Counted from the stretch's first letter, positions 8,264 through 28,407 are shown. The stretch is DNA of 64,000 bases from an uncultured Chloroflexia bacterium (GCA_963848815.1 CAWKFY010000029.1:110544-174543); one strand, 5' to 3'. Numbers and translations are program-made. Notes: generated from the sequence alone by a model not told the origin.

Positions 8264-8267
8264 ATCT

Positions 8268-10106: not shown

Positions 10107-10119
10107 TTTTTCCCTTCCT

Positions 10120-10644: not shown

Positions 10645-12151
10645 CGGCACCTTCCTCCAATATTTTATATAAGCGTGGCATATCCAGGTTTTCCCTGAAC
10701 ACTTTTGCCAGTTCATCATAAGCCTTTTCCCTGTCCGGCCAGGTCTTATTCACCTGCGGGATGCCCCGCAGCCCGCACAAATTATCCAGCATTTTCCAGG
10801 TAAAATCGCGGTTGTCGAAGAGGCCATGCATATAGCTGCCGAAAATTGTACCTTCGGGATTAAGGCTGCCCTCGTGGTAAGTCCCCTCCGAAACGATGGA
10901 TTCAGTGACTTTGAAGGCAGGCTGCCCGGACAGCGGCCTGGTCCTGCCCATATGTATCTCATAGGCTGTGACCTCCACCGATCCCATGCCCTTCAACAGG
11001 CCGGCCTTACCTGTTACGCGGGCCTTGACCTGCGTCGTTATCTTCTCCGGCTCGAAAACCGTCTCCATATCCAGCAGTCCCAAACCCACGGTTTCCGTGG
11101 TATCGGACTCGACGTGGTGCGTGTCGATGATCCTCTGCCCGAGCATCTGGTAGCCGCCGCAGATGCCTACGATGGGGACCCCCGCCCCGGCCAGGCGCCG
11201 GACCTCGTCGCTCATGCCGGTATGGTTCATATGAATAAGGTCGTTAATAGTGCTCTTGGTCCCCGGCAATATGATTAAATCTGGCTGGCCCAATTCGTAA
11301 GGCCTGGATACGTATCTTACATTGCATAAAGCTTCCAGCGGATCGAAGTCATCATAGTTGGCTATATGAGGCAGGCGGATGATGCAGATATAGGGGCGGT
11401 CGATATTTTTAATGTTGATACGTTCGTCAAGGTATACGGAGTCCTCCTGGGCGATTCCTATATTTCTAATGTAGGGGATAACGCCGAGGACCGAGCGGGA
11501 GTAGCGTTTCTCCAGGAAGTCCAGTCCCGGCTTTAGCAGGGATATATCACCCCGGAACTTGTTTATGGCGAATCCTTTGATCAGCCTGCGCTGCCGGGGA
11601 GGTAGGAGCTGCATCGTTCCGGCGATGGAGGCGAAGACTCCGCCCCGGTCGATATCGCCCACCAGGATGACGGGCGCCGATGCAAACCTGGCAATGCGCA
11701 TGTTGGCGATCTCCCTATCCATCAGGTTTATCTCAGCGGGGCTTCCTGCGCCCTCGATGACCAGGATTTCGTAGTCGCGGCGCAGCTTATTGAGGGACTT
11801 CTTTATAGAAGGCAGCAGCTCCGAGTTATGCCGGTAATAGTCCGCCGCATCCGAAACTTGCTGAGCCCGTCCCAGCAGCACCAGTTGCGATGTATTATCG
11901 GCCTGCGGCTTGAGCAGAACGGGGTTCATTTCAACGCTGGGATCTATGCCGGCGGCCTCGGCCTGGATGGCCTGCGACCTGCCGATCTCCCCGCCCTGCG
12001 GGGTCACGAAGGAGTTCAAGGCCATGTTTTGCGCCTTGAAGGGCGCCACCTTGTAACCATCTTGCTTGAAGATACGGCAGAGGGCGGTGACAAATATACT
12101 CTTGCCGGCCGAGGAGGCGGTGCCCTGTACCATCAATGTCCTGGCCTTCAT
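10634..12151 (-). CDS. cobQ: cobyric acid synthase
   Basis: The 505-aa ORF starts MVQGTASSAGKS and has a C-terminal GATase1-like domain (GICGGYQMLG). Confidence 0.9.
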   Translation of the reverse strand: MKARTLMVQGTASSAGKSIFVTALCRIFKQDGYKVAPFKAQNMALNSFVTPQGGEIGRSQAIQAEAAGIDPSVEMNPVLLKPQADNTSQLVLLGRAQQVSDAADYYRHNSELLPSIKKSLNKLRRDYEILVIEGAGSPAEINLMDREIANMRIARFASAPVILVGDIDRGGVFASIAGTMQLLPPRQRRLIKGFAINKFRGDISLLKPGLDFLEKRYSRSVLGVIPYIRNIGIAQEDSVYLDERINIKNIDRPYICIIRLPHIANYDDFDPLEALCNVRYVSRPYELGQPDLIILPGTKSTINDLIHMNHTGMSDEVRRLAGAGVPIVGICGGYQMLGQRIIDTHHVESDTTETVGLGLLDMETVFEPEKITTQVKARVTGKAGLLKGMGSVEVTAYEIHMGRTRPLSGQPAFKVTESIVSEGTYHEGSLNPEGTIFGSYMHGLFDNRDFTWKMLDNLCGLRGIPQVNKTWPDREKAYDELAKVFRENLDMPRLYKILEEGADGR

Positions 12152-12155
12152 ATCC

Positions 12156-13235
12156 TCAGCCAGCCTCCCGTATGGCGGCGATCAGTTTACGGCAATCATG
12201 CATGCTGCGGGGCGAGACCCTGACATACTCGGGTAATCCGAATGACGTGCAGTCCCGTACTAGGAAGCCTTTTTTCAGCAGGCGTTTTTTAAAGGCGGCC
12301 GCGTCACCTGCCCGAAAGATGAAAAAATTGGTCTGCGTGGGAATTACCCTAAAACCCAGGCGGCTCAACTGGCCTGCAAGGTAGAGCTTGCACCTGCTTA
12401 TTCGGCTGCAGCAGTTGGCAAGGTAATCATCGCAACCTACGGCTGAAAGGCCTGCCTTCTGGGCAACCGAGTTAACATTCCAGGGAGGGCGAACTTTTTT
12501 CAGCATGTCGATAATATGGCGCGGCGCAATGCCGTAGCCCAACCTGAGTCCCGCAATGGCGAATTCCTTGGTCATCGAGCGTACTATCAGAAGGTTGGAC
12601 GCATTCAGCAGTTTGCGGGAATCCCAGGCGTTATCTGTAAATGCAATATAGGCCTCATCCAGGACTACCAGCGAGTCCGGAAAGTTACGCAGGACCCTAG
12701 AGACTTCATCGTAACTTAAGTACTGCCCTGTAGGATTATTGGGATTACACAGGAAAACGGCCGCCGGTTTATGGGATTTTGCGAAAGCGGCGAATTGGCC
12801 AGCGTCGAGTCTGAAATCATTTTCTTCAGGTAGTGCGAACTTGACCACTTCAGCATTGACGATGCGGCAGGCCAGCTCATACTCTCCGTACGTGGGGGAA
12901 GGGATAATCACCCTGTCACCGTGGCCGAGGTAGGCCGCTGCAGCCAGCCGGATTATCTCGGTTGAGCCGTTGCCTACAATAAGGTTTCCTACAGGGACGC
13001 CCAGCTTTTCGGAGAACGCCTGTGTCAGGGTGGCTGCATCGGGGTCGGGGTAGACGGCCACGTTGGCTTCCCGAACGGCCTTTTTCACGCTTGACGGCGG
13101 GCCATAAGGATTGCAGCAGGTGCTGAAGTCCAGCACATTGCCTGCCAGCCTCGTTGAGCTGAGGCCGCCATGGATACTATCCGGTAAACCAGCGATATGC
13201 GGCTTAGCGTGCAGCACTGACGGCCACCTCCGCAC
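12156..13235 (-). CDS. cobD: L-threonine-O-3-phosphate decarboxylase (class I/II aminotransferase fold)
   Basis: The 359-aa ORF has the N-terminal HGG motif, NPNNPTG and SMTKEFAIAGLRLGY (PLP lysine region). It lies between cbiB and cobQ. An alternative GTG start at 13217, preceded by GGAGGT, is plausible. Confidence 0.8.
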   Translation of the reverse strand: MRRWPSVLHAKPHIAGLPDSIHGGLSSTRLAGNVLDFSTCCNPYGPPSSVKKAVREANVAVYPDPDAATLTQAFSEKLGVPVGNLIVGNGSTEIIRLAAAAYLGHGDRVIIPSPTYGEYELACRIVNAEVVKFALPEENDFRLDAGQFAAFAKSHKPAAVFLCNPNNPTGQYLSYDEVSRVLRNFPDSLVVLDEAYIAFTDNAWDSRKLLNASNLLIVRSMTKEFAIAGLRLGYGIAPRHIIDMLKKVRPPWNVNSVAQKAGLSAVGCDDYLANCCSRISRCKLYLAGQLSRLGFRVIPTQTNFFIFRAGDAAAFKKRLLKKGFLVRDCTSFGLPEYVRVSPRSMHDCRKLIAAIREAG

Positions 13236-14130
13236 CGATAATTACCAGGCTCCAAATTGAAGCAGAAAGCAACATGATCACCTGCGAGCGGCCGATCGAA
13301 GCTACAGACATGGTCTCAATGCTTGTCCCCACGCTATATGCCCCGGCCTTTTCAAGCTGTATACCCAGGGTGCCTGCCATAGCGCCCATCGTCCATCCCG
13401 CGTTAGGGCTTTCAGTCTTGACATGCTCGTTAAGCATGGCTTGCCAGCCTTCCCTGGCGCGGCCCGTGTAAAGGGATGCCAGGACGATGAGAAAGGAACT
13501 GATACGGGCGGGGAAGTAATTGACCACGTCATCCAGCCGGGCCGCAAATTTGCCGGTGTACTCCCAGCGGCCGTGGAAGCCGATCATGGCGTCGAACGTA
13601 TTGACGATGCGGTAGACGATGGCGCCCGGCAGTCCGAAAATAACATAATAGAGAAGGGGCGCCACGAAGCTGTCGCACAGGTTCTCTGCGCAGGACTCTA
13701 TGGCTGCCGAAATAACTTGCTGCCGGCTGAGGTCCCGCGTTTCACGGCTGACCAGCGCCGTGACCTCCGTCCTCGCACCTGCGATATCATCATGGAGCAG
13801 GCATTCCTTCACTTTCTGGACCGCTGTCCATAGACCACGCAGGGAAAAAGTGTTTTTCAGCAGGTAAGCGGAAATAACCACATAGACGAAAACGCTCCAG
13901 CTTTGGAGAAAGGCCAGTGCATAATAGAGCGGGACAGTGATGATCGAAGCTGTCAGGAGCACCATCCAGGCGCCGTAAATAAACTGCCATACCTTGCCGC
14001 CGGCGGGACAGAATTTGAGCTGAAATGAGATCAGCTTGCCCAGCCATGCCACCGGATGCCAGCGGTTGGCCGGCTCCCCAAATGAAATATCCAGCAGCAA
14101 CGCCAGTACCAATACCAATACGGCAATCAT
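13204..14130 (-). CDS. cbiB: adenosylcobinamide-phosphate synthase
   Basis: The 308-aa membrane ORF has WHPVAWLGKLI and the overall CbiB/CobD pattern. Its start overlaps the upstream ATPase stop by 4 nt. Confidence 0.85.
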   Translation of the reverse strand: MIAVLVLVLALLLDISFGEPANRWHPVAWLGKLISFQLKFCPAGGKVWQFIYGAWMVLLTASIITVPLYYALAFLQSWSVFVYVVISAYLLKNTFSLRGLWTAVQKVKECLLHDDIAGARTEVTALVSRETRDLSRQQVISAAIESCAENLCDSFVAPLLYYVIFGLPGAIVYRIVNTFDAMIGFHGRWEYTGKFAARLDDVVNYFPARISSFLIVLASLYTGRAREGWQAMLNEHVKTESPNAGWTMGAMAGTLGIQLEKAGAYSVGTSIETMSVASIGRSQVIMLLSASIWSLVIIGAEVAVSAAR

Positions 14131-14936
14131 ATTTCTTCTTTATTCCCGTTATTTCTACCATTGGCTGTAACCAGGGTGACAGGCCGACCGTTCACCGGGT
14201 GCTTGAACACGTGAATGTTTGTGCCGAAAACGTCCCTTATCGTCGGAGCGTCTATTATGTCCTCGGGATGGCCCTGCTTCCATATTTGCTTATCGTTAAG
14301 CAGTATTAGAGTGTCGCAGTATTGCGAGGCCAGGTTGAGGTCGTGCAGGCTGGCGAATATGGACAGGTCTTTTTCCTGGCAAAGCTGCCTAAGGAAATTA
14401 AGCGTCTCCGCCTGGTAATTAATATCCAGGTTGGCTGTAGGCTCATCCAGCAGCAGGATGCCGGCCTCCTGCGTGATCATGCGGGCGATAATTATGCGTT
14501 GCCTCTCGCCGCCCGATAGCTCGTTGATACGCTTGTCGGCCAGCGATAGCGTCTGGGTGATTTCCATGGCGCGGCAGGCTATATCGATATCCCTGGCGCT
14601 TTCGTACCTTAAGAGTCCCAGATGGGGCGTCCTCCCCATCAGGACGATTTCCCTGGCGCTGAATAGCTCGGGCAATACGGCATTCTGCGGTACCAGGGCT
14701 ATGTTTCTGGCAATATACTCGTGATCGCAGCTGCGGATGCTTTTACCATCCAGGTTAACGCTGCCTTCATAAGGGCGAATGAGCCCCGACATGGCCTTGA
14801 GCAGGGTGGTCTTGCCTGCACCGTTGGGACCTATAATCCCGCAGAACCGGCCGGGAATGGAAGCCAGGTTGACCCCTCGCAGAACGATATTGTTCCCGTA
14901 TTTGAAAGCGGCATCTGTCAATATCAACTCCGGCAT
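14127..14936 (-). CDS. ABC transporter ATP-binding protein (FecE/BtuD type; corrinoid uptake inferred)
   Basis: The 269-aa ORF has Walker A GPNGAGKTT, the signature LSGGERQR and Walker B LLLDEP. A corrinoid substrate is inferred from the riboswitch and operon context. Confidence 0.85.
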   Translation of the reverse strand: MPELILTDAAFKYGNNIVLRGVNLASIPGRFCGIIGPNGAGKTTLLKAMSGLIRPYEGSVNLDGKSIRSCDHEYIARNIALVPQNAVLPELFSAREIVLMGRTPHLGLLRYESARDIDIACRAMEITQTLSLADKRINELSGGERQRIIIARMITQEAGILLLDEPTANLDINYQAETLNFLRQLCQEKDLSIFASLHDLNLASQYCDTLILLNDKQIWKQGHPEDIIDAPTIRDVFGTNIHVFKHPVNGRPVTLVTANGRNNGNKEEI

Positions 14937-15997
14937 CAGAATATAGCCTTCTTTTTCTGTCGTAATAGGTAGAGGAAGAAAGGCGCTCCGATCAGTGCGG
15001 TGATAATGCCGACCGGTATCTCGGTGGGGGCCAGCGCAGTCCGTGCGAACGTATCCGCAAGTATGAGAAATCCGGCGCCCGTCAGCAGCGACATGGGCAG
15101 CAGGAGCCTGTAATCAGGGCCAAAGACCAGCCTCACGGCATGCGGGATGATGATGCCCACAAAGCCTATGGCCCCGCAGAAACAAACGGCTGCCGCTGTA
15201 GCTATGGTCGCTCCGGCCAGAACGATTATTTTCACCCGCTCGACATTTACGCCAAGCTGCTGCGCCTGCTCTTCATCCAGTTGCATAACGTTCAGGGGAC
15301 GGGCAAATGCCAGGATGGCGATCACCCCCGCCAGTATGTAGGGCGCCATGACGGCTACGCTCCACCAGTCTGCCAGCGAGAAAGTGCCGAGCAGCCAGAA
15401 AATTATGCCGTGCACCCTGTCTCCCGAGGTAATTATCAGATAGGAGGTAATCGATGCCAGGAATGCGCCGAGGGCAACCCCTCCCAGGATTACCGTGGTT
15501 ACCGGCAGGGTTTTGCCCGTCCGTGCAATCGAATAAACGGCGATAACACACACTACTGCCCCCGCAAAGGCGAGGATAGGTATAAGGGCCGAAGGTACTC
15601 CCACCGGCAGCAGAAAGCCGATTACCGCGCCCAGCGCCGCTCCCTGCGAGATACCTGTGAGGTAAGGGTCAGCCAGCGGATTGTGGAACATGCCCTGGTA
15701 GGCCGCTCCGCTGACTGCCAGTGCGGCTCCAGCCAGCCCTGCCATGAGGATGCGTGGCAGCCGTATGTCGAACAGTATGGTTTGAAAAACGGCCGGGTAA
15801 GATGCGTCAGCGCCCGTGGAAAAGACCCTGGCCGCTATCATTTTAAAAATGTCGGGGAATGGGATTGGCAGGCTGCCGACAGATACGGCGCCGACGATGA
15901 TAAGCAGCAACACAAAGGCTGCGCCTGTAAGCGCGATGGTGATATTTCGCAGCTTCCGCTGGTGAAGCTTGAACTCAGTCTGGACAACGTTTTCCAT
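14936..15997 (-). CDS. FecCD/BtuC-family ABC permease
   Basis: The 353-aa polytopic ORF shows the typical FecCD pattern (RLPRILMAGLAGAALAVSGAAYQG, ..GAIGFVGIIIPH). Confidence 0.85.
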   Translation of the reverse strand: MENVVQTEFKLHQRKLRNITIALTGAAFVLLLIIVGAVSVGSLPIPFPDIFKMIAARVFSTGADASYPAVFQTILFDIRLPRILMAGLAGAALAVSGAAYQGMFHNPLADPYLTGISQGAALGAVIGFLLPVGVPSALIPILAFAGAVVCVIAVYSIARTGKTLPVTTVILGGVALGAFLASITSYLIITSGDRVHGIIFWLLGTFSLADWWSVAVMAPYILAGVIAILAFARPLNVMQLDEEQAQQLGVNVERVKIIVLAGATIATAAAVCFCGAIGFVGIIIPHAVRLVFGPDYRLLLPMSLLTGAGFLILADTFARTALAPTEIPVGIITALIGAPFFLYLLRQKKKAIF

Positions 15998-16054
15998 AAA
16001 GCTATAATTCCATAAGTGCGATTAAAAATTCTATCTCGCCTGTTTCTGGCCCGA

Positions 16055-16966
16055 CTATTTCCCCGGATTGTAGAAGGAGGCCATCTGTTCAAGGGCGGTA
16101 ACGCAGCGCGGACCGTAACGTAAAACAAGGTCTCCATCCATTTTGTAGATGGCATGGTTCCTGGCGGCGGTAGTGCTCCGGAAGCGTGGGTCAGTATTTA
16201 CAAAGTCCCACAGCGGATTATCCGTCTGTCCCATGTCTGAGGGTACGATTATGACCTCCGGATCCCGGCTGATTAAGCTCTCCATACTGATCGTGCCGTA
16301 GTCCGTTATGTCGGAAACAACATTCTTGCCGCCGGCGGCCTTGAGCATATCGTCGGGCAAGGTGCCGGATCCCGCTACCATCAGCGGGTCGTACCATATT
16401 ATGACCAGAGTGCGCAGAGGCTGTGACGCGGCCTGGTTTTTTGCCGCAGAAACGACGGCCTGAATCCGTTTATTAAGGCCGGCTGTCAGCTCCGAGGCCG
16501 TATTTTCCGCGCCGGTGATTTTCCCCACCAGGTTGATATCCGATAGTACTCCGTTCAGTGTTTTGGGATAGAGGGTTACCACGTTAAAGCCGACTTTTTG
16601 CAGCAGAGGTGTCACGGTTTTACTATGTATATCCGTGGCCAGAATGAGGTCAGGCTGAAGGGCCACCACCTTCTCCATATCAACGGTGCTGAATCCGCCT
16701 ATTTTAGCCTTATTCAAAGCGTCGGGAGGGTAGTTGCAATATTCGGTTACTCCCACCAGGCGGTCTTGAAGTCCCAGCGCATATACGATTTCAGTGTTAC
16801 TCGGAGCCAGGGAGATGATGCGTGAAGCAGGTTGATCGATTTTTACAGGTGCTCCAGCATCATCCGAGATATGAGCTGCAGGCATGGGCTGGCCGCAGGC
16901 CAGCCCCGATATAAGGACGGACAAGCCGGCAATCGCAGCCAGCAACAGGTTCTTCAAATTAGTCAT
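16055..16966 (-). CDS. periplasmic/lipoprotein substrate-binding protein, BtuF/cluster-A type
   Basis: The 303-aa ORF has a lipoprotein-like signal (LISGLACG) and the PBP pattern RIISLAPSNTEIVYALG. It is the first gene after the B12 riboswitch. Confidence 0.8.
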   Translation of the reverse strand: MTNLKNLLLAAIAGLSVLISGLACGQPMPAAHISDDAGAPVKIDQPASRIISLAPSNTEIVYALGLQDRLVGVTEYCNYPPDALNKAKIGGFSTVDMEKVVALQPDLILATDIHSKTVTPLLQKVGFNVVTLYPKTLNGVLSDINLVGKITGAENTASELTAGLNKRIQAVVSAAKNQAASQPLRTLVIIWYDPLMVAGSGTLPDDMLKAAGGKNVVSDITDYGTISMESLISRDPEVIIVPSDMGQTDNPLWDFVNTDPRFRSTTAARNHAIYKMDGDLVLRYGPRCVTALEQMASFYNPGK

Positions 16967-17039: not shown

Positions 17040-17175
17040 TCCCACCCCCTAACTCCGCGGAGGTAGCCTTTGTTCGCAAGGTGGCGTTCTGACTGTAACA
17101 GCAGGCGGGACTGTACCGGAATTGCGCCGGTTTGCTTTCCAATTATGCCCGGACTAACTTCCAAGCGCCTTGCTT
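17040..17175 (-). promoter_or_regulatory. cobalamin (B12) riboswitch aptamer
   Basis: The reverse strand reads ..UUGGAAAGCAAACCGGCGCAAUUCCGGUACAGUCCCGCCUGCUGUUACAGUCAGAACGCCACCUUGCG.. This matches the conserved core as I recall it (GGGAA..GGUG.AA.UCC..AC.G.CCCGC..CUGUAA..AGUCAGAA..CC, including the B12-box region). It sits as the 5' leader of a corrinoid uptake/salvage operon. Confidence 0.8.
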
Positions 17176-17246
17176 TATATATTCAATTGGTTTACAGGAT
17201 ATACGGTTTATAATATGAAAGTCAAACTCGTAGGCAAACAAAGCTC

Positions 17247-17276
17247 TTGCCTTCGACGGAAAGGCAAGGCTATAAT
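17247..17276 (+). promoter_or_regulatory. candidate promoter for the oligosaccharyltransferase gene, overlapping an 8-bp inverted repeat
   Basis: TTGCCT-18 nt-TATAAT lies about 20 nt upstream of the ATG at 17297. The inverted repeat CTTGCCTT..AAGGCAAG spans the spacer. This rests on a motif match only. Confidence 0.3.
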
Positions 17277-17296: not shown

Positions 17297-19645
17297 ATGT
17301 TTAAGAAAATACCGTCCTGGGTTATTCCGCTTGTGCTGCTTATCGTAATCCTGGCTGTTGCCCTGTGGTTGCGTATATTACTTCCCTACAATCAGGTCTT
17401 CGTAAATGATTGGGTCAAGATAACAGGCGTCGATGGCAATTTTTACATGAGGCTGGTAGAAAACCTTGACGCGCATTTTCCCAACATTACGCATTTCGAT
17501 CCCTATTACGTTTTCCCGGACGGTGCCCGTACCGATCAGCAGCCCCTGTTCTTTGCCTTCCTGATGGGAGGCATTGCATGGTTAGTCGGGCTGGGCAACC
17601 CCTCCACGCACCTTGTAGATGTCGTTTCGGTATATGTTCCTCCATTCCTCGCGGCCTTGAGCATTGTAGCAATCTTTTTTATAGGCAAGGCTCTGATCAA
17701 CAAATGGGTCGGGCTGATTGCTGCCGCACTACTGGCGGTTATGCCGGGCGAGTTTCTCAACCGGTCAATGCTGGGCTATACGGACCATCATGTCGCGGAG
17801 GTATTATGGTCGACCGCCTGTATGTTATTCACCATGCTTGCTTTCCGGTTTGGCGGAAGCATGGATATTAAATTCATCAGGGATAAGGGATGGAAGCCCG
17901 TTGTCAAGCCACTTGTGATGTGTGTCCTGGCCGGAATATCCCTGGCTTTTTACATGGCGACCTGGGTCGGAGCCGCCCTGTTCACCCTGATATTGGCTGT
18001 GTTCCTGGTTATCCAAATTATCGTCGATTACAACCGGGGCGTCAGCGCAGTGGCCGCCGGCGCAATAGGGATAGTAATCTTCCTCTCGGCACTGATAGTC
18101 TATTTGCCATTTGGGAGGGTGTTTTCCGTAACATTGATTTCAATGATCGGCGGGATGGGGTTGCTGGTGGTTCTGGTAGCGCTGGCCGAAATGCTGGCGA
18201 GGCGCAATATCAGAACGGTTTACTATGTTAGCTCGCTGGCAGGGCTGGCTGTAGTCGGCACACTTGCATTATATATGTTTTCACCCCAATTACTATCGAC
18301 CATATTCGACTCGCTAGCCAAGATTTTTTTCTGGGTCCCGGACACAACCATTATGGAGATGCAACCCCTTCTGCTTCAACAGGGACAGTTTACGCTGGTT
18401 AATATATTCAGCAACTATACCACGGCACTGCTGGTGGGGTTGGCTGGCCTGGTACTGATGCTTTACCAGGTATTCAAACAGGCAACACCACTCAGGATAT
18501 TGATGCTCGTATGGACTGTATTGATCCTGCTTTCCGCTCTCGCCGCCAGAAGGTTTGCCTACTATTTCGCCGTAAACGTAGCCCTGCTTTCAGGCTATTT
18601 TGCTTGGTGGCTGCTGGAAAAAGTGGGGTTCGGCAGGGAGAAAGCTCCTGCAGATCTGGTGCAGCCCTCGGCGAGGACCAAGACTTCCAGAACCAGGCTG
18701 GCCCAGATTAAGAAGGAGAAAAGGACCAAGCCGGCTGTCATGGCGCTGACTTTGATAGCCGTCCTATTCGTATTAATTTATCCGGATTTGGGAGTGATGC
18801 CGGGTGGACAGAAGCCTTCGATCGACCTGGCATCCCGGCCTCTTTTCGCCCCGCCGGATGCCTGGTACGCATCGTTGGAATGGATGCAAAAGAATACTCC
18901 GGAGCCGCTGGGCGATGCCAATGCCTATTATGGAGTATATAAAGCTCCGGGCCAGGCTGGAGGGTTTGTCTACCCTGACAATGCCTATGGCGTTTTATCC
19001 TGGTGGGACTATGGCTACTGGATATCCCTCGTGGGCAGGAGAATACCCTTCTCCAACCCCGGCACATCGGCCACGAGGGGAGAGGCTAAATTCTTAATGG
19101 CGCCCGACGAGGCCTCGGCCGAGCAGTCTATCAAGGATATCAACATCAAGTACGTCGTCATCGACAACGAAATGGCTTCCTGGGACAGCAAATTCTTTGC
19201 GCTCGCCCAATGGTACGGCAAATCCTATACGGACTACTACGATTTATACTTGCAGAAGGGAGATGGAAATAACTATTCACAGGTGCTGCTTCTCTATCCG
19301 GAATATTATCAGACCATGGTAGTCCGGCTCTATAATTTCGACGGCAAAGCGGTTACCCCCAGCAAGGTGACGGTAGTCGGGATCGGAAAGATTACAGCTA
19401 AAGATGGGACTGCATATAACCTGATCACCGACACCAAACAGTTTAATTCGTATGACGAAGCTGTAGCGTTTGTAGCCGGGCAAAAACCCGGCACGTACAT
19501 GATTGTGGGTGAAGACCCGTACAACAGCCCGGTTCCGTTGGAGGCAATAAAGGACTACAAACTGGTTCATGCCTCCGATCAGGAAGTAGCCGCCGGACAG
19601 AGCGGAATACCGCAGGTTAAGATTTTCGAGTATCAGAAACAGTAA
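17297..19645 (+). CDS. STT3/AglB/PglB-family oligosaccharyltransferase
   Basis: The 782-aa ORF has many N-terminal TM helices and a soluble C-terminal domain. The ordered motifs are KITGVDGNFYMRLVE, GYTDHHVAEVLW, SWWDYGYWIS (the WWDYG catalytic motif) and NIKYVVIDNEMASWDSKF (a DK-like segment). Confidence 0.85.
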   Translation: MFKKIPSWVIPLVLLIVILAVALWLRILLPYNQVFVNDWVKITGVDGNFYMRLVENLDAHFPNITHFDPYYVFPDGARTDQQPLFFAFLMGGIAWLVGLGNPSTHLVDVVSVYVPPFLAALSIVAIFFIGKALINKWVGLIAAALLAVMPGEFLNRSMLGYTDHHVAEVLWSTACMLFTMLAFRFGGSMDIKFIRDKGWKPVVKPLVMCVLAGISLAFYMATWVGAALFTLILAVFLVIQIIVDYNRGVSAVAAGAIGIVIFLSALIVYLPFGRVFSVTLISMIGGMGLLVVLVALAEMLARRNIRTVYYVSSLAGLAVVGTLALYMFSPQLLSTIFDSLAKIFFWVPDTTIMEMQPLLLQQGQFTLVNIFSNYTTALLVGLAGLVLMLYQVFKQATPLRILMLVWTVLILLSALAARRFAYYFAVNVALLSGYFAWWLLEKVGFGREKAPADLVQPSARTKTSRTRLAQIKKEKRTKPAVMALTLIAVLFVLIYPDLGVMPGGQKPSIDLASRPLFAPPDAWYASLEWMQKNTPEPLGDANAYYGVYKAPGQAGGFVYPDNAYGVLSWWDYGYWISLVGRRIPFSNPGTSATRGEAKFLMAPDEASAEQSIKDINIKYVVIDNEMASWDSKFFALAQWYGKSYTDYYDLYLQKGDGNNYSQVLLLYPEYYQTMVVRLYNFDGKAVTPSKVTVVGIGKITAKDGTAYNLITDTKQFNSYDEAVAFVAGQKPGTYMIVGEDPYNSPVPLEAIKDYKLVHASDQEVAAGQSGIPQVKIFEYQKQ

Positions 19646-19865: not shown

Positions 19866-20945
19866 ATGAAAAAGAATATTAAGGCTTTGATACTCAGCGG
19901 TGGCAAGGGGACCAGGCTCAAGCCTCTTACAACCACCATCCCGAAACAGCTTCTGCCCGTGGCTAACAAGCCCATACTTTCGTACGTGTTAGACCAGGTA
20001 GTTGAAGCGGGTATCACGGATATCGGGATGATAATTGCTCCCGAGACCGGCTACCTGATAAAAGAGTTTGCCGGCGATGGGTCAAGGTGGGGCGCTAAAA
20101 TCACTTATATCGTGCAGGCAGACCCCCTGGGCCTTGCTCACGCCGTAAGCACTGCCGCAGAGTTCCTGGGCTCGTCCTCCTTTTTGATGTTTCTGGGCGA
20201 TAACCTGATCCAGGGTGGTGTTAAGAAATTTGTCGACCGTTTCCGCAGTGATGAGTCGGACTCGTTGATACTGCTTAAATCCGTACCGGACCCGCGCCTT
20301 TTCGGCGTGGCCGAGATCGATAAGAAAGGAACCCTGCTTAGACTGGTAGAAAAACCCAAGAAGCCCAAAAGCGACCTGGCCATAGTGGGCGTATATCTTT
20401 TTAATGAACGTATCCATACCGCTATTAAACAAATAAAACCTTCCTGGCGCGGCGAGTTGGAAATAACCGATGCCATACAAAAAATGATAGATACGGACCG
20501 TAAGGTCGGCAGCCATATTTTGAAAGGCTGGTGGTTGGATACCGGTAAGAAGGACGATATGCTGGAAGCTAACAGGGTTGTACTGGATGACCTGCTGGTC
20601 CGGGATATACAGGGGAAGATCGATAGCAACAGCCGCGTGGCGGGGCGTGTCGCAATCGGTAAAGGCACCGAGATCATTAACAGCCGGGTACGCGGGCCGG
20701 TATCGATATCCGAGGGATGCAAGATCATCAATTCGTTCATCGGGCCCTTCACCAGCATAGGGTCGGGGTCTATCATTGAAGACTCTTTTATAGAGCATTC
20801 GGTTATCCTCGAGGGGTGCTATGTTAAAAAGATCGAACGTCTTGAAGATAGCATCATTGGAAGGGCATGCAAGGTGATTTACGACGAAAGCAGTTTCCAC
20901 AACAAGAAATTGTTCCTGGGCGATGATGCTATTGTTGAACTTTAA
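19866..20945 (+). CDS. rfbA: glucose-1-phosphate thymidylyltransferase, long form (nucleotidyltransferase + left-handed beta-helix)
   Basis: The 359-aa ORF has the LILSGGKGTRLKPLT motif and C-terminal hexapeptide repeats. It is followed by rmlC/B/D homologues. Confidence 0.8.
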   Translation: MKKNIKALILSGGKGTRLKPLTTTIPKQLLPVANKPILSYVLDQVVEAGITDIGMIIAPETGYLIKEFAGDGSRWGAKITYIVQADPLGLAHAVSTAAEFLGSSSFLMFLGDNLIQGGVKKFVDRFRSDESDSLILLKSVPDPRLFGVAEIDKKGTLLRLVEKPKKPKSDLAIVGVYLFNERIHTAIKQIKPSWRGELEITDAIQKMIDTDRKVGSHILKGWWLDTGKKDDMLEANRVVLDDLLVRDIQGKIDSNSRVAGRVAIGKGTEIINSRVRGPVSISEGCKIINSFIGPFTSIGSGSIIEDSFIEHSVILEGCYVKKIERLEDSIIGRACKVIYDESSFHNKKLFLGDDAIVEL

Positions 20946-20970
20946 TATTCTTTGATGGGAAGGATTTATC

Positions 20971-21486
20971 GTGATTAAAAATTATGCGTTGGAAGGAATA
21001 AAAAGCCAGGAGATCAACTTACTGCCTGATGAACGCGGCCTTTTCGCTGAAATAATGAGATCAGACTGGCAGGACCTGATAGATGAGAAGATAGTCCAGG
21101 CCAATTTGAGCCAGAGTTACTCCGGGGTTGTTAGGGCCTGGCATCGCCACATGCGCGGCCAGGTCGATTATTTTATAGTGGTGAAGGGCGCCCTGAAAAT
21201 CTGCGCCTATGATGACAAGTCCAGGCAACTGGTTGAAATCGTTGACAGCAGCAGCAGGCCGATGCTGGTAAGGATTCCCGGACATTACTGGCACGGCACT
21301 CGCAACGTGGGCGATGAACTTTCCATAGTGGTGTATTTTACCAATCGTCTTTATGATGCCGGCAATCCGGACGAGGAGCGCCGCAGCTGGAATGATCCTC
21401 AGATAATACCGGTTGAGATAAACGGCAATAGGAATGACCCTCGGGCCGGCAAACCTTTCGACTGGTTCTTTCCTCCCTATAAATAA
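20971..21486 (+). CDS. rfbC: dTDP-4-dehydrorhamnose 3,5-epimerase-like cupin
   Basis: The 171-aa ORF has a GTG start and a cupin core (RAWHRH..QVDYF.VV.G, HGT.N). It lies between rmlA and rmlB. An alternative role as an NDP-sugar ketoisomerase cannot be excluded. Confidence 0.65.
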   Translation: MIKNYALEGIKSQEINLLPDERGLFAEIMRSDWQDLIDEKIVQANLSQSYSGVVRAWHRHMRGQVDYFIVVKGALKICAYDDKSRQLVEIVDSSSRPMLVRIPGHYWHGTRNVGDELSIVVYFTNRLYDAGNPDEERRSWNDPQIIPVEINGNRNDPRAGKPFDWFFPPYK

Positions 21487-21504
21487 TCTCGGGCGTGAAT
21501 CACA

Positions 21505-22512
21505 ATGAAAATAATAGTTACCGGCGGCGCCGGCTTTATCGGAAGCAATTTTATTCGGTTGGTTCTTCAAGAAAAAACCCAATGGGAAGTCGTCAATTTC
21601 GATAAGCTGACCTATTGCGGAAACCTGGAAAACCTCAAGGACTTTCAAGATGATCCAAGGTACCATTTCATTCACGGGGATATCGCCGACAGAGAGTCGG
21701 TCGATGGTATGCTGGCGAAGGAGCGCCCGGACTCTATCATTAATTTCGCGGCCGAGTCCCATGTAGATCGCAGCATACTCGATGCTTCTCCTTTTATACA
21801 TACCAATGTTGAAGGCACCATGGTGATGCTGGAAGGCGCCAATAAATATCAGGTCAAAAAGTTCGTACAGGTGTCCACCGACGAAGTTTACGGATCTATA
21901 AACAGAGGCAGCTTTAACGAACGTTCAAACCTGGCGCCGGGCAGCCCCTATTCGGCCAGCAAGGCCGCGGCGGACCTGCTCTGCCTGGCCTATTGGAACA
22001 CGCATAAGACTCCGGTTACGGTGACCCGCTGTACCAACAATTACGGCCCCTACCAGTTTCCCGAAAAATTGATCCCGCTGGCTATCAGCAACGTTATTGA
22101 GGGCAAATCCATACCTGTGTATGGTGATGGCCTTAATGTACGCGATTGGATATATGTGGAAGACCATTGCCGCGGCCTGCTTGATGTGCTCGAGAAGGGT
22201 AAGCCCGGTGAAGTCTATAACATAGCGGGAAGCAGCGAGAAAACCAACCTGGAGATTGTGCACACCCTGCTCCGTCTGCTGGATAAAAAGCAGGACATGA
22301 TAGATTTTGTTAAGGACCGGCCGGGACATGACCGCCGGTATAGCCTCGATGATAAGAAAATACGCAAAGAGTTGGGTTGGAAGCCGCGCCACAACTTCGA
22401 CGAAGCTATGAAACTGACAGTCGACTGGTACCGTTTGAATAATGCCTGGTGGCAGAGGATCAGGAGCGGCGAATATTTAAAATACTACGAGAAAATGTAT
22501 CTCAATAGATGA
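21505..22512 (+). CDS. rfbB: dTDP-glucose 4,6-dehydratase
   Basis: The 335-aa ORF has VTGGAGFIGSNF, STDEVYG and YSASKAA motifs and the typical C-terminus. Confidence 0.9.
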   Translation: MKIIVTGGAGFIGSNFIRLVLQEKTQWEVVNFDKLTYCGNLENLKDFQDDPRYHFIHGDIADRESVDGMLAKERPDSIINFAAESHVDRSILDASPFIHTNVEGTMVMLEGANKYQVKKFVQVSTDEVYGSINRGSFNERSNLAPGSPYSASKAAADLLCLAYWNTHKTPVTVTRCTNNYGPYQFPEKLIPLAISNVIEGKSIPVYGDGLNVRDWIYVEDHCRGLLDVLEKGKPGEVYNIAGSSEKTNLEIVHTLLRLLDKKQDMIDFVKDRPGHDRRYSLDDKKIRKELGWKPRHNFDEAMKLTVDWYRLNNAWWQRIRSGEYLKYYEKMYLNR

Positions 22513-23378
22513 AAATACTACTGATTGGCGCCAATGGGCAACTGGGCAGCGATCTCTGTATAGCGCTTCAAGAAAATGACCTGACGGCCCTGACTGATAA
22601 AGATATAGACATAACGGATATCGATTCTGTCTTCGAAGCATGCAGTAAATACAAGCCTCAGATCGTAATTAATACGGCTGCGTATGTTCGTGTGGATGAT
22701 TGTGAGGATAATATTGATCTGGCTTACAAGGTGAATGCGTTGGGTGCACGCAATGTTGCTGTAGCAGCCCAGAAAGCAGGGGCCGTTCTGGCACATTTAA
22801 GTACGGATTATGTTTTTGGTGAAGATGAGAAGAGAATGGTTCCCTATACGGAGTTCGATCCGCCTGCGCCAATAAGTGTATACGGTCATTCAAAGCTGGC
22901 AGGGGAAAACTACGTTCGTCATCTATGCAGCAGGTATTTTATTGTGAGGACTTCTGCCTTATTTGGGGTGGCGGGAAGCATGGGGAAGGGTGGCAATTTT
23001 ATTGAGACGATGATCAAAATGGCGCAAGAAAAGGATGAACTGCGTGTAGTCAATGACCAGGTCTTTTCACCTACCTACGCCAAAGACCTGGCCAATGAAA
23101 TAGCCCTATTGATAGATACAAAATACTACGGAATATTTCATATCACGAATAGCGGTGTTTGTTCCTGGTACGACTTTGCGAGCGAAATAGTGACATTGTG
23201 CGGCGCCAGGGCGCGTGTGGTTCCCATTTCTTCGAGAGATTATCCGCAGAGGGCGAGACGCCCGGAATATTCAGTTCTGAGTAATTACCATCTGAAACTG
23301 CTGGGAATGGATGATATGAGAGACTGGAGAGAAGCGTTAAAGGATTATATGCTGGCTAGAAGGGGAACTCATTCATAG
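22509..23378 (+). CDS. rfbD: dTDP-4-dehydrorhamnose reductase
   Basis: The 289-aa ORF has the RmlD pattern (ILLIGANGQLG, STDYVF, YGHSKLAGE). It overlaps the rfbB stop by 4 nt. Confidence 0.9.
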   Translation: MKILLIGANGQLGSDLCIALQENDLTALTDKDIDITDIDSVFEACSKYKPQIVINTAAYVRVDDCEDNIDLAYKVNALGARNVAVAAQKAGAVLAHLSTDYVFGEDEKRMVPYTEFDPPAPISVYGHSKLAGENYVRHLCSRYFIVRTSALFGVAGSMGKGGNFIETMIKMAQEKDELRVVNDQVFSPTYAKDLANEIALLIDTKYYGIFHITNSGVCSWYDFASEIVTLCGARARVVPISSRDYPQRARRPEYSVLSNYHLKLLGMDDMRDWREALKDYMLARRGTHS

Positions 23379-23395
23379 TGGCAGTTCACTACATT

Positions 23396-24154
23396 TTATA
23401 ATTTCGAAAACAGCGGTTTAACCAGTTCAAATGCTTTGGATGCAAGATATGTCGGTATTACCTCTGTATTATTACACCGTTTGCAAAGATCGTACCAAGG
23501 TTTATAATTTTGTTTCACAATCTCATATCTCTCTGTAAAAAGATTGCCTATTCTATGCCGAAGTCCAAAATCCATGCAGCAAAGGTAAAGATTTCCATTA
23601 GGTAACATTGTGAATCCAGGTTTTTCCCATTTTGGACAAATCCTAAAAAACAGGTTTTTTTCTCTATAAATACCTCTGCAATAATTTTCACGATTGTTTG
23701 ATGCAAAATTATCGTTCATAATATCGAAAGTAACATTGTGAACTTTTTGTATTACAGTGAATACATGCTCCTTATATTTCTCTGTAATTTGTATATGGGC
23801 GTGTTCTCCATCCGGTAAATGTAAACAAAATTCGGCATATTTATAGCTCGCCAACTCATCAATGTCCTGGTCAGATGCTCCGACTAATGTAGTATTTACA
23901 ACTACAGGATGTTTTTTTTCGATTGAATAGCGAATAAATTTTATAGCATCTTTATTGGCAAATGGTTCACAAAATCCGGAGAAAACTACCGGTAGATTAT
24001 CGGGCAAATTGTTTAAAGCGATCTTAAAATTATCTACTGTTAACGATCGATTATTTTCGCCGTAATTCTTTACGGTTATTTCCTGTGGACAATACTTGGC
24101 GCAATTGATCGGACATCCTATATGCGTGGTTATTTCAACAAATTCAGCATTCAT
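23396..24154 (-). CDS. small radical SAM-like enzyme with SPASM/twitch-like C-terminal Cys motifs
   Basis: The 252-aa ORF has an N-terminal Cys triad in THIGCPINCAKYCPQ and C-terminal LYLCCMDFG...GNL...DLCKRCNN. It is the first gene of the low-GC island. Confidence 0.6.
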   Translation of the reverse strand: MNAEFVEITTHIGCPINCAKYCPQEITVKNYGENNRSLTVDNFKIALNNLPDNLPVVFSGFCEPFANKDAIKFIRYSIEKKHPVVVNTTLVGASDQDIDELASYKYAEFCLHLPDGEHAHIQITEKYKEHVFTVIQKVHNVTFDIMNDNFASNNRENYCRGIYREKNLFFRICPKWEKPGFTMLPNGNLYLCCMDFGLRHRIGNLFTERYEIVKQNYKPWYDLCKRCNNTEVIPTYLASKAFELVKPLFSKL

Positions 24155-24400
24155 TTTTCGATAATAATGTAAAAGTATAACAATGATGAATAGTTATTAA
24201 CAATTTATTATATATAGTATATTTAAGGCCAGTATGACCTTACCCTGTAACCATGTTTGGTCGACTAGTTGGAATCTGTTTTGCCTGCCTAGCAAGTCAT
24301 ATTTTATTGATGGTAGTCATGCTGCCTTACTTTTAAAGGTTGTTAATTGTGGTCATACTCCCAATAAACAAATTTCGAGTGGAAGCATGGGTTAATACAC

Positions 24401-24429
24401 TTGACAGTAGACTTTGTAATGTCTACCAT
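24401..24429 (+). promoter_or_regulatory. candidate promoter/operator for the heptose operon
   Basis: TTGACA-17 nt-TACCAT lies ~40 nt upstream of the ATG at 24468. A perfect 6-bp inverted repeat (GTAGAC-N8-GTCTAC) fills the spacer. This rests on a motif match only. Confidence 0.3.
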
Positions 24430-24467
24430 AACGTAGTTGCAATCGATAAACGTGGAAACTAATCTAA

Positions 24468-25169
24468 ATGCAAGCGGTAATATTATGCGGTGGATTTGGT
24501 ACACGTCTGGCATCCATCACTCGCACAGTTCCAAAAAGTATGATTGAAATTGAAGGCAAAGTATTTTTGGAATACCAACTGGAACTTCTCAAAAAATATG
24601 AAATTCGGGATATAGTTTTATGTGTGGGCCATCTTAAAAATGAGATAATTGACTTTTTCGGGGATGGATCTCAATGCGGAGTCAATATTATATATAGTGA
24701 AGAGAGATATCCACTGGGGACAGCTGGAGCAGTAAAAAACGCAAATAAGTATTTACAAGATAATTTTATACTGCTAGATGGAGATGCATATGTTCCTATT
24801 AATTATACTGAGATAGTAAATGAATTTGGCATTGTTGATAGCCTTGGTTTGATGGTTATATTTAAAAATAATAACCTTTATGATAATAGTAATGTTATCG
24901 TTAATGGTGGATTAATTACTGCCTATGAACGTTCGGGTAGATTTCTGGGGATGGTATACATTCATTCGGGTATCACTATTTTGAGAAAAAGTGTATTGGA
25001 TTTGATTCCAGATGATCAGTTTTATCAATTAGATTTATTATTTAGTGATCTGATTAAAAGTAAGCAGCTTTGTGCTTTTGAAACTGCGCAACGCTTCTAT
25101 GAAATAGGTTCGTTAACTGGACTAAACGAATTTAAAGCGCTTGTTAAATCAGGAGGATTACCTAAGTGA
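24468..25169 (+). CDS. hddC: D-glycero-alpha-D-manno-heptose 1-phosphate guanylyltransferase-like nucleotidyltransferase
   Basis: The 233-aa ORF has AVILCGGFGTRL and is clustered with hddA, gmhB and gmhA homologues. Confidence 0.7.
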   Translation: MQAVILCGGFGTRLASITRTVPKSMIEIEGKVFLEYQLELLKKYEIRDIVLCVGHLKNEIIDFFGDGSQCGVNIIYSEERYPLGTAGAVKNANKYLQDNFILLDGDAYVPINYTEIVNEFGIVDSLGLMVIFKNNNLYDNSNVIVNGGLITAYERSGRFLGMVYIHSGITILRKSVLDLIPDDQFYQLDLLFSDLIKSKQLCAFETAQRFYEIGSLTGLNEFKALVKSGGLPK

Positions 25170-26164
25170 TTGCGACACGGACGCCCTATAGAATACCGCT
25201 GGGAGGCGGGGGAACAGATTTACCTTCGTATTACAGTCGGTATGGCGGTTTTCTCATCACGGCAGCAATCAATAAGTATATTTACATTTTCATTGACCAC
25301 AGATTTGAGAAAAATATACGTGTCAGCCACCACATTGCCATTGAAATTAAGGACCGTGTAGACCAGTTGGAGCATCCTGTAATTCGGAATGCTTTGGCTA
25401 TGCTGGACGTCAACGATGGAATCGAGATAGTTTCATTGGCTGACATACCGCCTAATACAGGAATGGGATCTTCAGGTAGTTTTTCAGTTGGGCTTCTGGC
25501 TGCTTTACATCGCTATAAAGGAGATTATATCTCTAAACAGGAGTTGGCTGAAGAGGCATGCAGACTGGAAATAGATATCCTGGGAAGGGTGGGCGGCAAG
25601 CAGGATCAATATGCAGGAGCATTTGGAGGCATAATAGCACTCGATATTAATGTCAATGGCAAAGTCGAAGTTAGCTCGGTAAAGATTCCTCCTGACGCAT
25701 ATAAGGAGTTAGAAAAAAATATCCTGCTTTTTTACACAGGTATAAGGCGGGATGCATCCGAAGTGCTGAAGGTTCAAAATCAGGCTACGGAGCAACACGA
25801 TCAAAGTACAATAGAGTCCCTGCACACGATCAAAGACATAGGGAAAGAAAGCAAAAAAGCTTTAGAGAAGGGGGATCTACGAAGATTTGGTGAACTGCTT
25901 GATGTACATTGGAAGACAAAGCGAAGTTTATCGAAGGGCATAACATCCGACCATATAGATAGGCTTTATGACATCGCTATTAACAATGGCGCTCTGGGGG
26001 GTAAGATCATGGGTGCTGGTGGAGGTGGTTTTTTCATGTTTTATAGCGAGGGAGAGCACAGAGAAAAATTAAAGAGAGCACTGGCAACTGAGGGTTTGCA
26101 GCATTTTCCGTTTAAGATAGATATTGAGGGAACGTCAGTTCTACTGAAATCCAATGGGGATTGA
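25166..26164 (+). CDS. hddA: GHMP kinase, D-glycero-D-manno-heptose 7-phosphate kinase-like
   Basis: The 332-aa ORF has GHMP motif II (PPNTGMGSSGSFSVGLL) and a C-terminal GKIMGAGGGGFFMF. It overlaps the hddC stop by 4 nt. Confidence 0.75.
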   Translation: MIATRTPYRIPLGGGGTDLPSYYSRYGGFLITAAINKYIYIFIDHRFEKNIRVSHHIAIEIKDRVDQLEHPVIRNALAMLDVNDGIEIVSLADIPPNTGMGSSGSFSVGLLAALHRYKGDYISKQELAEEACRLEIDILGRVGGKQDQYAGAFGGIIALDINVNGKVEVSSVKIPPDAYKELEKNILLFYTGIRRDASEVLKVQNQATEQHDQSTIESLHTIKDIGKESKKALEKGDLRRFGELLDVHWKTKRSLSKGITSDHIDRLYDIAINNGALGGKIMGAGGGGFFMFYSEGEHREKLKRALATEGLQHFPFKIDIEGTSVLLKSNGD

Positions 26165-26182
26165 TCAAACGCAGGCGTAAAA

Positions 26183-26788
26183 TTGTTGAATAGAAATAAT
26201 ATGGCCGTGTTCTTAGACAGAGATGGCGTCATCAATGAACTTATATACCATAGGGAGGCTGGAGTAATCGATACGCCTTTCACGCTTGGGCAGTTTAGAT
26301 TGCTTCCCGGCGTGGTGGAGGCGATCAGGATTCTCAATAATGAGCAAATAAAGGTAATCGTGGTGTCTAATCAACCCGGTATCGCAAAAAATCACTTCAC
26401 CAGAACTACATTAAACTCGACCAATCGCAAAATGAAATCACTGTTGGCACGTGGCGGTGCGCACATTGACAGTATCTATTATTGTCTTCATCATCCAGAG
26501 GCCGTCAAGGTAAGGTTCTTGAAAGTATGCAATTGTCGTAAGCCTGCCCCTGGTCTTATTTTAAAAGCAGCACGTAAATTTCAAATTGATACAAATAATT
26601 CCTACATGGTCGGAGACAATCTCTCGGACATAAAAGCTGGCAGGGCAGCCGGTTGCAAGACAATCTTGATCGGAAAGCACAAGTGTGAGTTATGTCGTCT
26701 GATGCAGGAAGAAAATGCCGTGCCTGATTTTATTGCTGCTAATTTACTTGAGGCAGTTGAAAGGATAGTACAAGTGAGGAGTAAATAA
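26183..26788 (+). CDS. gmhB: D,D-heptose 1,7-bisphosphate phosphatase (HAD-IIIA)
   Basis: The 201-aa ORF has FLDRDGVINE, SNQPGIAK, a Zn-site-like C.H......C.C (YYCLHHPE..VCNCRKP) and GDNLSDIKAG. Confidence 0.8.
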   Translation: MLNRNNMAVFLDRDGVINELIYHREAGVIDTPFTLGQFRLLPGVVEAIRILNNEQIKVIVVSNQPGIAKNHFTRTTLNSTNRKMKSLLARGGAHIDSIYYCLHHPEAVKVRFLKVCNCRKPAPGLILKAARKFQIDTNNSYMVGDNLSDIKAGRAAGCKTILIGKHKCELCRLMQEENAVPDFIAANLLEAVERIVQVRSK

Positions 26789-26789
26789 T

Positions 26790-27461: not shown

Positions 27462-27506
27462 TGGCCAATGGTATCTCAAGCAAGCCTAAAATTCGCCGTT
27501 ATTTAA

Positions 27507-28358: not shown

Positions 28359-28407
28359 TAGGCAGCCAAAAGATGATTTTATATCGGCAGGTGGAGTATT
28401 TGAAAGT

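Follow-up and report, generated by a model that had tools for sequence, protein, structure and literature searches.

An AglB-type oligosaccharyltransferase gene beside a glycan-synthesis island in an uncultured Dehalococcoidia bacterium

Can a bacterium outside the established N-glycosylating lineages carry a working oligosaccharyltransferase (OST) of the archaeal AglB type? The question is raised by a 64,000-nucleotide stretch of metagenomic DNA (GCA_963848815.1 CAWKFY010000029.1:110544-174543; the whole stretch is referred to as the window), in which one long open reading frame (ORF), here called aglB, encodes a polytopic protein with the motifs of N-oligosaccharyltransferases. To our knowledge, bacterial N-glycosylation has been characterized only for PglB of the Campylobacterota and some Desulfobacterota. 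The original prediction for this DNA saw in the ORF an archaeal-style N-glycosylation enzyme operating in another bacterial lineage. Judged by its sequence and a structural model, the ORF probably encodes a functional single-subunit AglB-type N-oligosaccharyltransferase, and its host is a Dehalococcoidia (Chloroflexota) bacterium. Family, fold, active-site residues, and host thus support the prediction, whose word "operating" is suggested by conservation.

Family, fold, and active site of the aglB product

The gene starts with ATG and encodes 782 amino acids, exactly the frame and length first proposed (Table 1), and no rival long ORF occurs on either strand. The start codon is right, as the alignments of the homologues begin at residue 1–3. 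A Shine-Dalgarno-like AAGGTG lies ~8 nt before the ATG. The protein is divided into a polytopic N-terminal domain (residues ~1–500) and a globular C-terminal domain (~505–782).

Profile searches place the protein among the OSTs and, more narrowly, with AglB. Pfam STT3 (PF02516) matches residues 25–438 with 74.2 bits (cutoff 24.5, E 2e-20) and AglB_core-like matches residues 523–627 with 73 bits (E 2.5e-20), whereas STT3-PglB_core stays below its threshold (15.5 vs 23 bits). The strongest match is to the NCBIfam model TIGR04154, [quoted passage not shown] with 608.5 bits (curated cutoff 450, E 2e-182). It spans profile positions 2–740 of 831, the last domain being missing from the window protein. 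On this scale, archaeal members reach 720–835 bits (835 for AglB-L of Archaeoglobus fulgidus, AfAglB-L), the window protein 608, and other bacterial members 467–580, all above the cutoff. In a sequence search of the PDB, AfAglB-L is also the best solved relative (E 3.5e-51, residues 12–642; 27% identity over 723 columns), and no PglB chain reached E ≤ 1.

The predicted structure gives the same assignment. An AlphaFold2 model built on 42 homologues (mean pLDDT 85.7, pTM 0.84) superposes on AfAglB-L along its whole length, and Foldseek ranks AfAglB-L (TM 0.73) before eukaryotic STT3 (~0.62) and PglB (0.49–0.51). DPY19, PMT, and ArnT fall below the OSTs. Membership in the ArnT/PMT-type enzymes is rejected, since ArnT (TM 0.36, E 9e-5) and PMT (0.25–0.32) lie far under the OSTs.

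The WWDYG motif at residue 569 falls in the soluble C-terminal domain, past the last hydrophobic helix (~479–498), and no hydrophobic segment follows this helix. The loop before it contains 10 Lys/Arg residues and, being so rich in positive charge, would be cytoplasmic by the positive-inside rule. This rule and the homology to AfAglB-L agree in placing the WWDYG domain outside the cell; hence, the predicted position of the motif is neither intramembrane nor cytoplasmic. By sequence and predicted fold, the window protein is confirmed as a full-length AglB-type oligosaccharyltransferase.

Along the chain, the motifs occur as GVDGNFYMR at residue 44, TDHH at 162, WWDYG at 569, and DSKFFAL at 630. 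These are the acidic, DHH-type, WWDYG, and DK-like motifs that the original prediction had listed in canonical order, and all four are present in that order. In addition, the protein contains a TIXE motif (T351-I-M-E354) absent from that list. The roles of these elements can be read from AfAglB, in which Asp47, Asp161, and His163 are the metal ligands, Glu360 of TIXE acts via water molecules while the TIXE strand pairs with the sequon, and WWDYG together with the DK motif makes the Ser/Thr pocket (PMC8342417). In the alignment, D46 corresponds to Asp47, D163 and H165 to Asp161 and His163, T351-I-M-E354 to Thr357-Ile-Ala-Glu360, and K632 and L636 to the Lys and Met of the DK motif. Among 42 bacterial homologues down to 39% identity, D46, D163, H165, E354, W569, W570, D571, and G573 are invariant, and Y572 and K632 are each at least 90% conserved. 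The alignments thus show every metal-binding and sequon-binding residue kept in the window protein, with a DK-like motif that is non-canonical in spacing.

Relatives and origin of the gene

The original prediction had treated the gene as a possible one-off. Instead, it belongs to a large family in Chloroflexota metagenome-assembled genomes (MAGs) that is already annotated automatically: Homologue records carry the name [quoted passage not shown] from the NCBI and JGI pipelines. Searched exhaustively with HMMER, 1.84 billion cluster representatives include 2639 relatives at E<1e-3, of which 832 pass E<1e-30, their taxonomy being taken from named loci, Lombard's alignment (see below), and gene neighbors. 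A scan of one genome per GTDB species, seeded with query peptides and biased toward query-like sequences, gives 478 relatives. Bacteria account for 79 of the best 80, mostly Dehalococcoidia, Dehalococcoidales, and Chloroflexota MAGs; the remainder of these 80 includes Phycisphaerae, Planctomycetes, Bryobacterales, Vicinamibacteria, other Acidobacteria, and a few others. The window protein is 34–74% identical to Chloroflexota homologues, 30–36% to the nearest archaeal ones, and 26–29% to those of Archaeoglobi.

For a tree of the family, the added sequences were joined to named, trimmed sequences of the N-OST alignment of Lombard 2016 (PMC4973528, supplementary file 11); what is said here of this alignment and of the tree refers to the portion of that file used. 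A homology search seeded with AfAglB-L gave only Archaeoglobi, and the Methanosarcina and haloarchaeal sequences were drawn from the supplement. In the neighbor-joining tree (268 trimmed sites), the window protein joins Methanotecta-type AglBs, namely those of Methanosarcina, Methanocella, Methanoculleus, Natronomonas, and Archaeoglobi, as do the other proteins from Chloroflexota, Planctomycetota, and Acidobacteriota. PglB is found elsewhere, together with Methanococcales, Methanobacteriales, Deferribacteres, and Aquificae-type sequences. Sequences from Thermococcales, TACK/Asgard, and eukaryotes stand apart as well. Near TIXE, this alignment is visibly off for some PVC and Acidobacteria sequences. 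The rooting of an earlier neighbor-joining tree was discarded because its single Thermoproteota outgroup stood at saturated distance and the root was implausible. A full-length alignment (733 columns, 85 sequences) separates archaeal from bacterial sequences in 48 of 60 neighbor-joining bootstraps, and bacterial monophyly is claimed no further than this split.

Lombard 2016 found bacterial AglB homologues nested in a euryarchaeal clade, read them as archaea-to-bacteria transfers, and inferred AglB to be widespread and ancestral in Archaea (PMC4973528). The direction of transfer adopted here follows from that analysis and that ancestral state, not from the trees described above. The data fit a transfer long ago, with later diversification in bacteria: aglB would have come from the lineage of Methanosarcina, Methanocella, haloarchaea, and Archaeoglobus, would then have been inherited and diversified in Dehalococcoidia, and in this sublineage would have become fixed beside the btuFCD-cob operon. 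The same donor group appears in a 2025 study that shows how Dehalococcoidia and Anaerolineae received the archaellum from Methanotecta and that makes no mention of AglB (PMC12488501). In the portion of Lombard's alignment used, no entry is from Dehalococcoidia, though D. mccartyi 195 and Dehalogenimonas are in the genome set; this suggests, indirectly, that the cultured organohalide respirers are without aglB. Open-access papers and preprints yielded no paper tying Dehalococcoidia or Chloroflexota to AglB, STT3, or oligosaccharyltransferase. The enzyme family, its mechanism, and archaea-derived bacterial homologues are already known, and the Dehalococcoidia AglB is widespread and apparently unstudied.

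Function, glycan island, and host

Directly 3′ of aglB lies an island of genes for sugar nucleotides and glycan assembly (Table 1). It begins with the rml genes for dTDP-rhamnose, whose matches are above cutoff (TIGR01208 467, TIGR01181 484, and TIGR01214 317 bits) except for a weak rmlC-like one; this arrangement is syntenic in a related locus (L001). The block that follows resembles a GDP-(deoxy)heptose-type pathway, and its HddC- and HddA-like, HAD, transaldolase/FSA, and GmhA proteins a GDP-glycero-manno-heptose pathway, as judged from family-level, sub-equivalog matches; similar sets of the latter genes adjoin aglB in two other loci (L011 and L058). Further on, the 150-residue ORF closes, at its 3′ end, with a diverged copy of the corresponding end of the adjacent wzx. 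The two protein C termini are nearly alike, and the arrangement looks like a recombination scar. The GC content falls from ~0.50–0.55 to 0.38–0.46 over positions 22000–38000. This low GC, together with a gene content that varies between related loci, resembles the pattern of a hypervariable surface-glycan locus.

Table 1 Features of the window with their positions (counted from its first nucleotide)
Feature	Position	Strand	Remarks
hpt	249-767		confirmed
VWA (CoxE-like) protein beside AAA ATPase	860-2888	-	sub-threshold MadB-family match
He_PIG protein, 722 aa	3032-5200	-	N-terminal signal/anchor; Ser/Thr-rich He_PIG Ig-like domains; one transmembrane helix; long proline-rich cytoplasmic tail
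cob/btu operon	7721-16966	-	btuF, btuC, btuD, cbiB, cobD, cobQ, cobA, cobT, cobS, cobU
Terminator-like hairpin	17020-16999	-	GC-rich hairpin and T-run; upstream of btuF
Cobalamin riboswitch match (RF00174)	17062-17188	-	between btuF and aglB; 30.6 bits vs gathering threshold 31.5, E 5.7e-6
Sigma-70-like promoter match	17247-17276	+	TTGCCT-18-TATAAT, 10/12, 20 nt 5′ of aglB ATG; consensus match only
aglB	17297-19645	+	AglB-type oligosaccharyltransferase
rmlA (long form), rmlC-like cupin, rmlB, rmlD	19866-23378	+	dTDP-rhamnose (6-deoxyhexose) synthesis
Nucleotide-sugar block	24468-32899	+	HddC-like nucleotidyltransferase, HddA-like GHMP kinase, HAD phosphatase, transaldolase/FSA, SDR, two GFO/IDH/MocA oxidoreductases, GmhA sedoheptulose-7-P isomerase, RmlD-like reductase, GMD-like 4,6-dehydratase
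Heptose-type part of this block	24468-30015	+	HddC-like to GmhA; resembles a GDP-glycero-manno-heptose pathway
GT2-like	33311-34555	-	
150-aa ORF	34577-35029	-	weak GT2_4-like N terminus
Wzx/MOP flippase	35049-36503	-	
Rhamnosyltransferase-like GT2	36742-37674	+	
GT4	37690-38874	+	
DUF2206 polytopic membrane protein, 768 aa	38910-41216	-	PF09971, 168 bits; relatives in 3 related loci
Split GT4, C-terminal ORF	43609-43977	-	overlaps the next ORF in another frame
Split GT4, N-terminal ORF	43878-44738	-	tail looks out of frame
GT2 polyprenyl-phosphate glycosyltransferase, 234 aa	44750-45454	-	PpgS 136 bits, AglJ 125 bits, both sub-cutoff
glmS	45721-47499	-	glutamine-fructose-6-phosphate aminotransferase; amino-sugar supply
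DUF1616, C-terminal half, 145 aa	47592-48029	-	profile positions 151-298 of 307; directly downstream of queA
queA	48090-49097		confirmed
Two FAD-binding oxidase + CCG-domain Fe-S pairs, ETF alpha and beta	49566-56723	-	looks like an electron-bifurcating or lactate/glycolate-oxidase-type module

Beyond the low-GC stretch lies a DUF2206 protein with no NCBIfam match and no PDB relative by sequence; speculatively, it may be a glycan-processing membrane enzyme. Another dehydratase/epimerase gene lies between it and a split GT4 gene. Next to the latter, a GT2 protein matches PpgS, a polyprenyl-phospho-GalNAc synthase, and the haloarchaeal AglJ, and is a candidate maker of a polyprenyl-monophosphate-linked sugar. 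In the archaeal relatives inspected (n = 2; L081, L082/L083), aglB likewise stands among several GT2 and GT4 genes and a flippase. In one of them (L082), the gene is also surrounded by toxin-antitoxin genes (PIN, HEPN, nucleotidyltransferase) and lies near a CDP-archaeol synthase-like gene.

From these parts, the following route can be proposed. The glycan would be assembled on polyprenyl phosphate at the cytoplasmic face from dTDP-rhamnose, heptose-type sugars, and amino sugars, with the island providing the sugar pathways, the GT2 and GT4 transferases, and the AglJ/PpgS-like polyprenyl-phosphate glycosyltransferase. The Wzx-type flippase would carry it over the membrane, where AglB would move it en bloc onto the Asn of N-X-S/T sequons in exported surface proteins. 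Herein, D46, D163, and H165 would grip the divalent metal, and the E354/TIXE strand, WWDYG, and K632 the sequon. Euryarchaeota use monophosphate-type lipid-linked donors (PMC8342417). Because of this, and because an enzyme of the AglJ/PpgS kind loads polyprenyl monophosphate, a polyprenyl-monophosphate donor is possible for the window AglB as well, which is offered here as speculation.

Several observations speak against a working N-glycosylation pathway of this kind, and they are best considered together. On the enzyme itself, the C-terminal AglB_L1 domain (PF18079) is absent, by both Pfam and the coverage of TIGR04154. The DK-like motif W-D-S-K-F-F-A-L has its Asp at position K-2 (D-x-K) rather than in the canonical D-x-x-K; in the DK-like segment originally named, the Lys is conserved and aligned, and the spacing differs. 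In the island, the GT4 next to the AglJ/PpgS-like gene is frameshifted, by either a pseudogene state or an assembly error, and no initiating phosphoglycosyltransferase of the WecA or PglC type is seen in the 64-kb window. As to acceptors, the counts of N-X-S/T sequons in the window proteins are unremarkable, with no enrichment and no acceptor picked out. Among 1997 ORFs drawn from the window and from related loci, none has a PGF-CTERM-like tail; hence, the archaeosortase A context of the subfamily is not visible locally. The sole Chloroflexota archaellum examined experimentally has densities read as O-linked and not N-linked glycans (PMC12488501). On the side of descent, bootstrap values are 1–21 inside the Methanotecta-plus-bacteria group of the neighbor-joining tree, and neither an exact donor nor a number of transfers is claimed. 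Lastly, 11 unnamed representatives were taken as archaeal because they cluster with named archaeal sequences and one has a CDP-archaeol-synthase neighbor; this one, P0193, lies on a chromosome-scale NCBI contig beside the CDP-archaeol synthase-like gene.

Two further observations belong to the same context. The window proteins that were scanned include no exosortase-family match. The He_PIG protein listed in Table 1 has three N-X-S/T sequons only, about the number expected by chance.

Some of these points would suit a GT-C enzyme that is active but has taken on another role in bacteria—transferring to Ser/Thr, lipid, or polysaccharide, or mainly hydrolyzing lipid-linked oligosaccharide. No acceptor protein or PGF-CTERM substrate was found nearby, the archaellum densities are O-glycans in their published reading, and the island, with its rml genes, heptose pathway, and Wzx, resembles an O-antigen or capsule locus. 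In addition, the degenerate WWDYG motifs of Anaeromyxobacter, Geobacter, Stigmatella, and Chloracidobacterium in Lombard's alignment suggest a changed function in some lineages. Against this, the TIXE strand, WWDYG, and the DK-type Lys, which contact the sequon and not the sugar donor, are strictly conserved across the bacterial clade, and the fold match to AfAglB-L runs through the peptide-binding C-terminal core. With a changed acceptor, this conservation would be unexpected, and we regard such repurposing as unlikely.

A second alternative is a PglB-type enzyme of the Campylobacter/Desulfovibrio lineage, with the sequon D/E-X-N-X-S/T, that only looks AglB-like. It would explain a bacterial, single-subunit protein with WWDYG and TIXE as in PglB. 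The PDB search, the STT3-PglB_core score, and the TM values given above all argue against it, as does the place of the PglBs in the other clade, with Methanococcales and Methanobacteriales. Furthermore, the window protein has its second acidic motif in the D-H-H form known from AfAglB, and its C-terminal motif is aligned to the DK motif of that enzyme, Lys included; the MI motif is the one assigned to Eubacteria (PMC8342417). This identity is very improbable.

Equally improbable is a decaying relic of the transfer that no longer has a function. The frameshifted glycosyltransferase and the recombination scar in the island could be taken as signs of decay. The ORF, by contrast, is full length, its catalytic residues are invariant across homologues down to 39% identity, hundreds of family members occur in Dehalococcoidia, and the locus is conserved in this sublineage.

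The last alternative is that the DNA is not bacterial throughout, and the flank opposite to the island bears on it. Upstream of aglB, the cob/btu operon includes a cobT that matches the bacterial DMB-phosphoribosyltransferase equivalog and a cobU for a bifunctional kinase/guanylyltransferase, and a PAS histidine kinase gene and hpt lie beyond it. The bacterial context originally described (queA, glmS, hpt, and the cob operon) was found in full. The B12 riboswitch proposed with it is essentially right, given an aptamer match followed by a terminator-like hairpin upstream of btuF, and is formally sub-threshold: A default Rfam scan of the whole window gives nothing at the gathering threshold, and the match is recovered by a permissive intergenic scan only. 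The closest named genome among the best 80 of the 478 relatives, "Dehalococcoidia bacterium UBA1162," has an AglB of 72% identity, and its cob/btu and rml proteins are 69–90% identical and in the same gene order. The btuFCD/cob-aglB junction is kept in 7–9 loci with AglBs 41–72% identical, while the opposite flank differs between them. Because the junction is kept and the other flank varies, aglB is best understood as resident and vertically inherited, with a variable island at its side, and neither contamination nor a recent insertion fits. The neighbors and the synteny with UBA1162 thus make the host a Dehalococcoidia bacterium, a lineage outside the Campylobacterota and Desulfobacterota, as had been predicted.

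Archaeal DNA brought in by contamination, mis-binning, or chimeric assembly, with no bacterial AglB at all, is therefore the least probable of the alternatives: The TIGR04154 model is named for archaea, the nearest solved structure is archaeal, and the window holds DUF2206 and DUF1616, which are mostly archaeal families, but bacterial-type genes stand on both sides, the GC content is unbroken (~0.50–0.51 across 16–20 kb, with no step at the borders of aglB), the junction turns up again on Dehalococcoidia MAG contigs that different studies obtained independently (which already goes far to dismiss contamination), homologues lie on Chloroflexota contigs as long as 1.76 Mb, and the full-length alignments set the bacterial sequences apart from the sampled archaeal ones.

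The VWA (CoxE-like) gene pair has no counterpart in the related loci. Past queA in the window, two tandem pairs of an FAD-binding oxidase and a CCG-domain (heterodisulfide-reductase-like) Fe-S protein are followed by ETF alpha and beta.

With the functional AglB reading preferred, a broader and more tentative picture may be drawn, to which we give somewhat less than an even chance. Cultured Dehalococcoidia are not known to have peptidoglycan, and their surface layer is proteinaceous. Many Dehalococcoidia might run a complete archaeal-style N-glycosylation, with an AglB from Methanotecta, the donor group of the archaellum, and might place strain-variable rhamnose/heptose glycans on surface-layer and envelope proteins, possibly from a polyprenyl-monophosphate donor. 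If true, a second N-glycosylation system would exist in bacteria, independent of the first, widely distributed in phylogenetic terms, and working on a minimal N-X-S/T sequon. Should the AglB clade be active in Dehalococcoidia, Planctomycetota, and Acidobacteriota, N-glycosylation would be far more common in environmental bacteria than assumed. Such activity would also tie in with the unusual, archaea-like envelope of Dehalococcoidia and add to the gene flow from Methanotecta to Chloroflexota beside the archaellum. Moreover, it would offer new single-subunit OSTs for glycoengineering that may lack the need of PglB for an acidic residue at −2 of the sequon. With an intact, widespread AglB clade next to such an island, AglB-type N-glycosylation in bacteria can be put to a direct test.

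Comparison with known systems

AfAglB-L (AF_0329; PDB 3WAJ, 3WAK, 5GMY, and 7E9S) is the closest structural reference. It has in common with the window protein the TIGR04154 subfamily, the fold, the metal ligands, the TIXE Glu (Glu360, here E354), WWDYG, and a Lys-containing DK-type motif. The window protein is ~90 residues shorter and lacks the AglB_L1 domain found in Archaeoglobi, and its DK motif reads W-D-S-K-F-F-A-L instead of E-T-G-K-Y-Y-A-M. Since the host is bacterial, the carrier here would be a bacterial polyprenyl phosphate and not dolichyl phosphate.

The nearest archaeal proteins by sequence are the AglBs of Methanosarcina, Methanocella, and haloarchaea (for example, YP_007489348 of M. 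mazei and YP_327503 of Natronomonas) together with the representatives P0193 and P0255, at 30–36% identity and 310–420 bits. They contain the same GFTDHHVAE, RFAYY, and SWWDYGH/Y blocks as the window protein and are set apart from the bacterial clade by the 48/60 split of the full-length alignment.

PglB of Campylobacter is likewise a single-subunit bacterial GT-C OST with DXD, TIXE, and WWDYG motifs and adjoining glycan genes. It needs an acidic residue at the −2 position of the sequon and uses undecaprenyl-diphosphate donors. It differs from the window protein by its separate clade, a TM of only ~0.5, and the MI motif that eubacterial OSTs carry instead of the DK motif (PMC8342417).

Within bacteria, the homologues of Anaeromyxobacter, Stigmatella, Geobacter daltonii, and Chloracidobacterium in Lombard's alignment belong to the same broad group of the neighbor-joining tree as the window protein. 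Their WWDYG motifs are degenerate (RWDWG, SDWGLG, YFNLG, and CDWTPG), whereas in the Dehalococcoidia proteins the motif is perfect and invariant.

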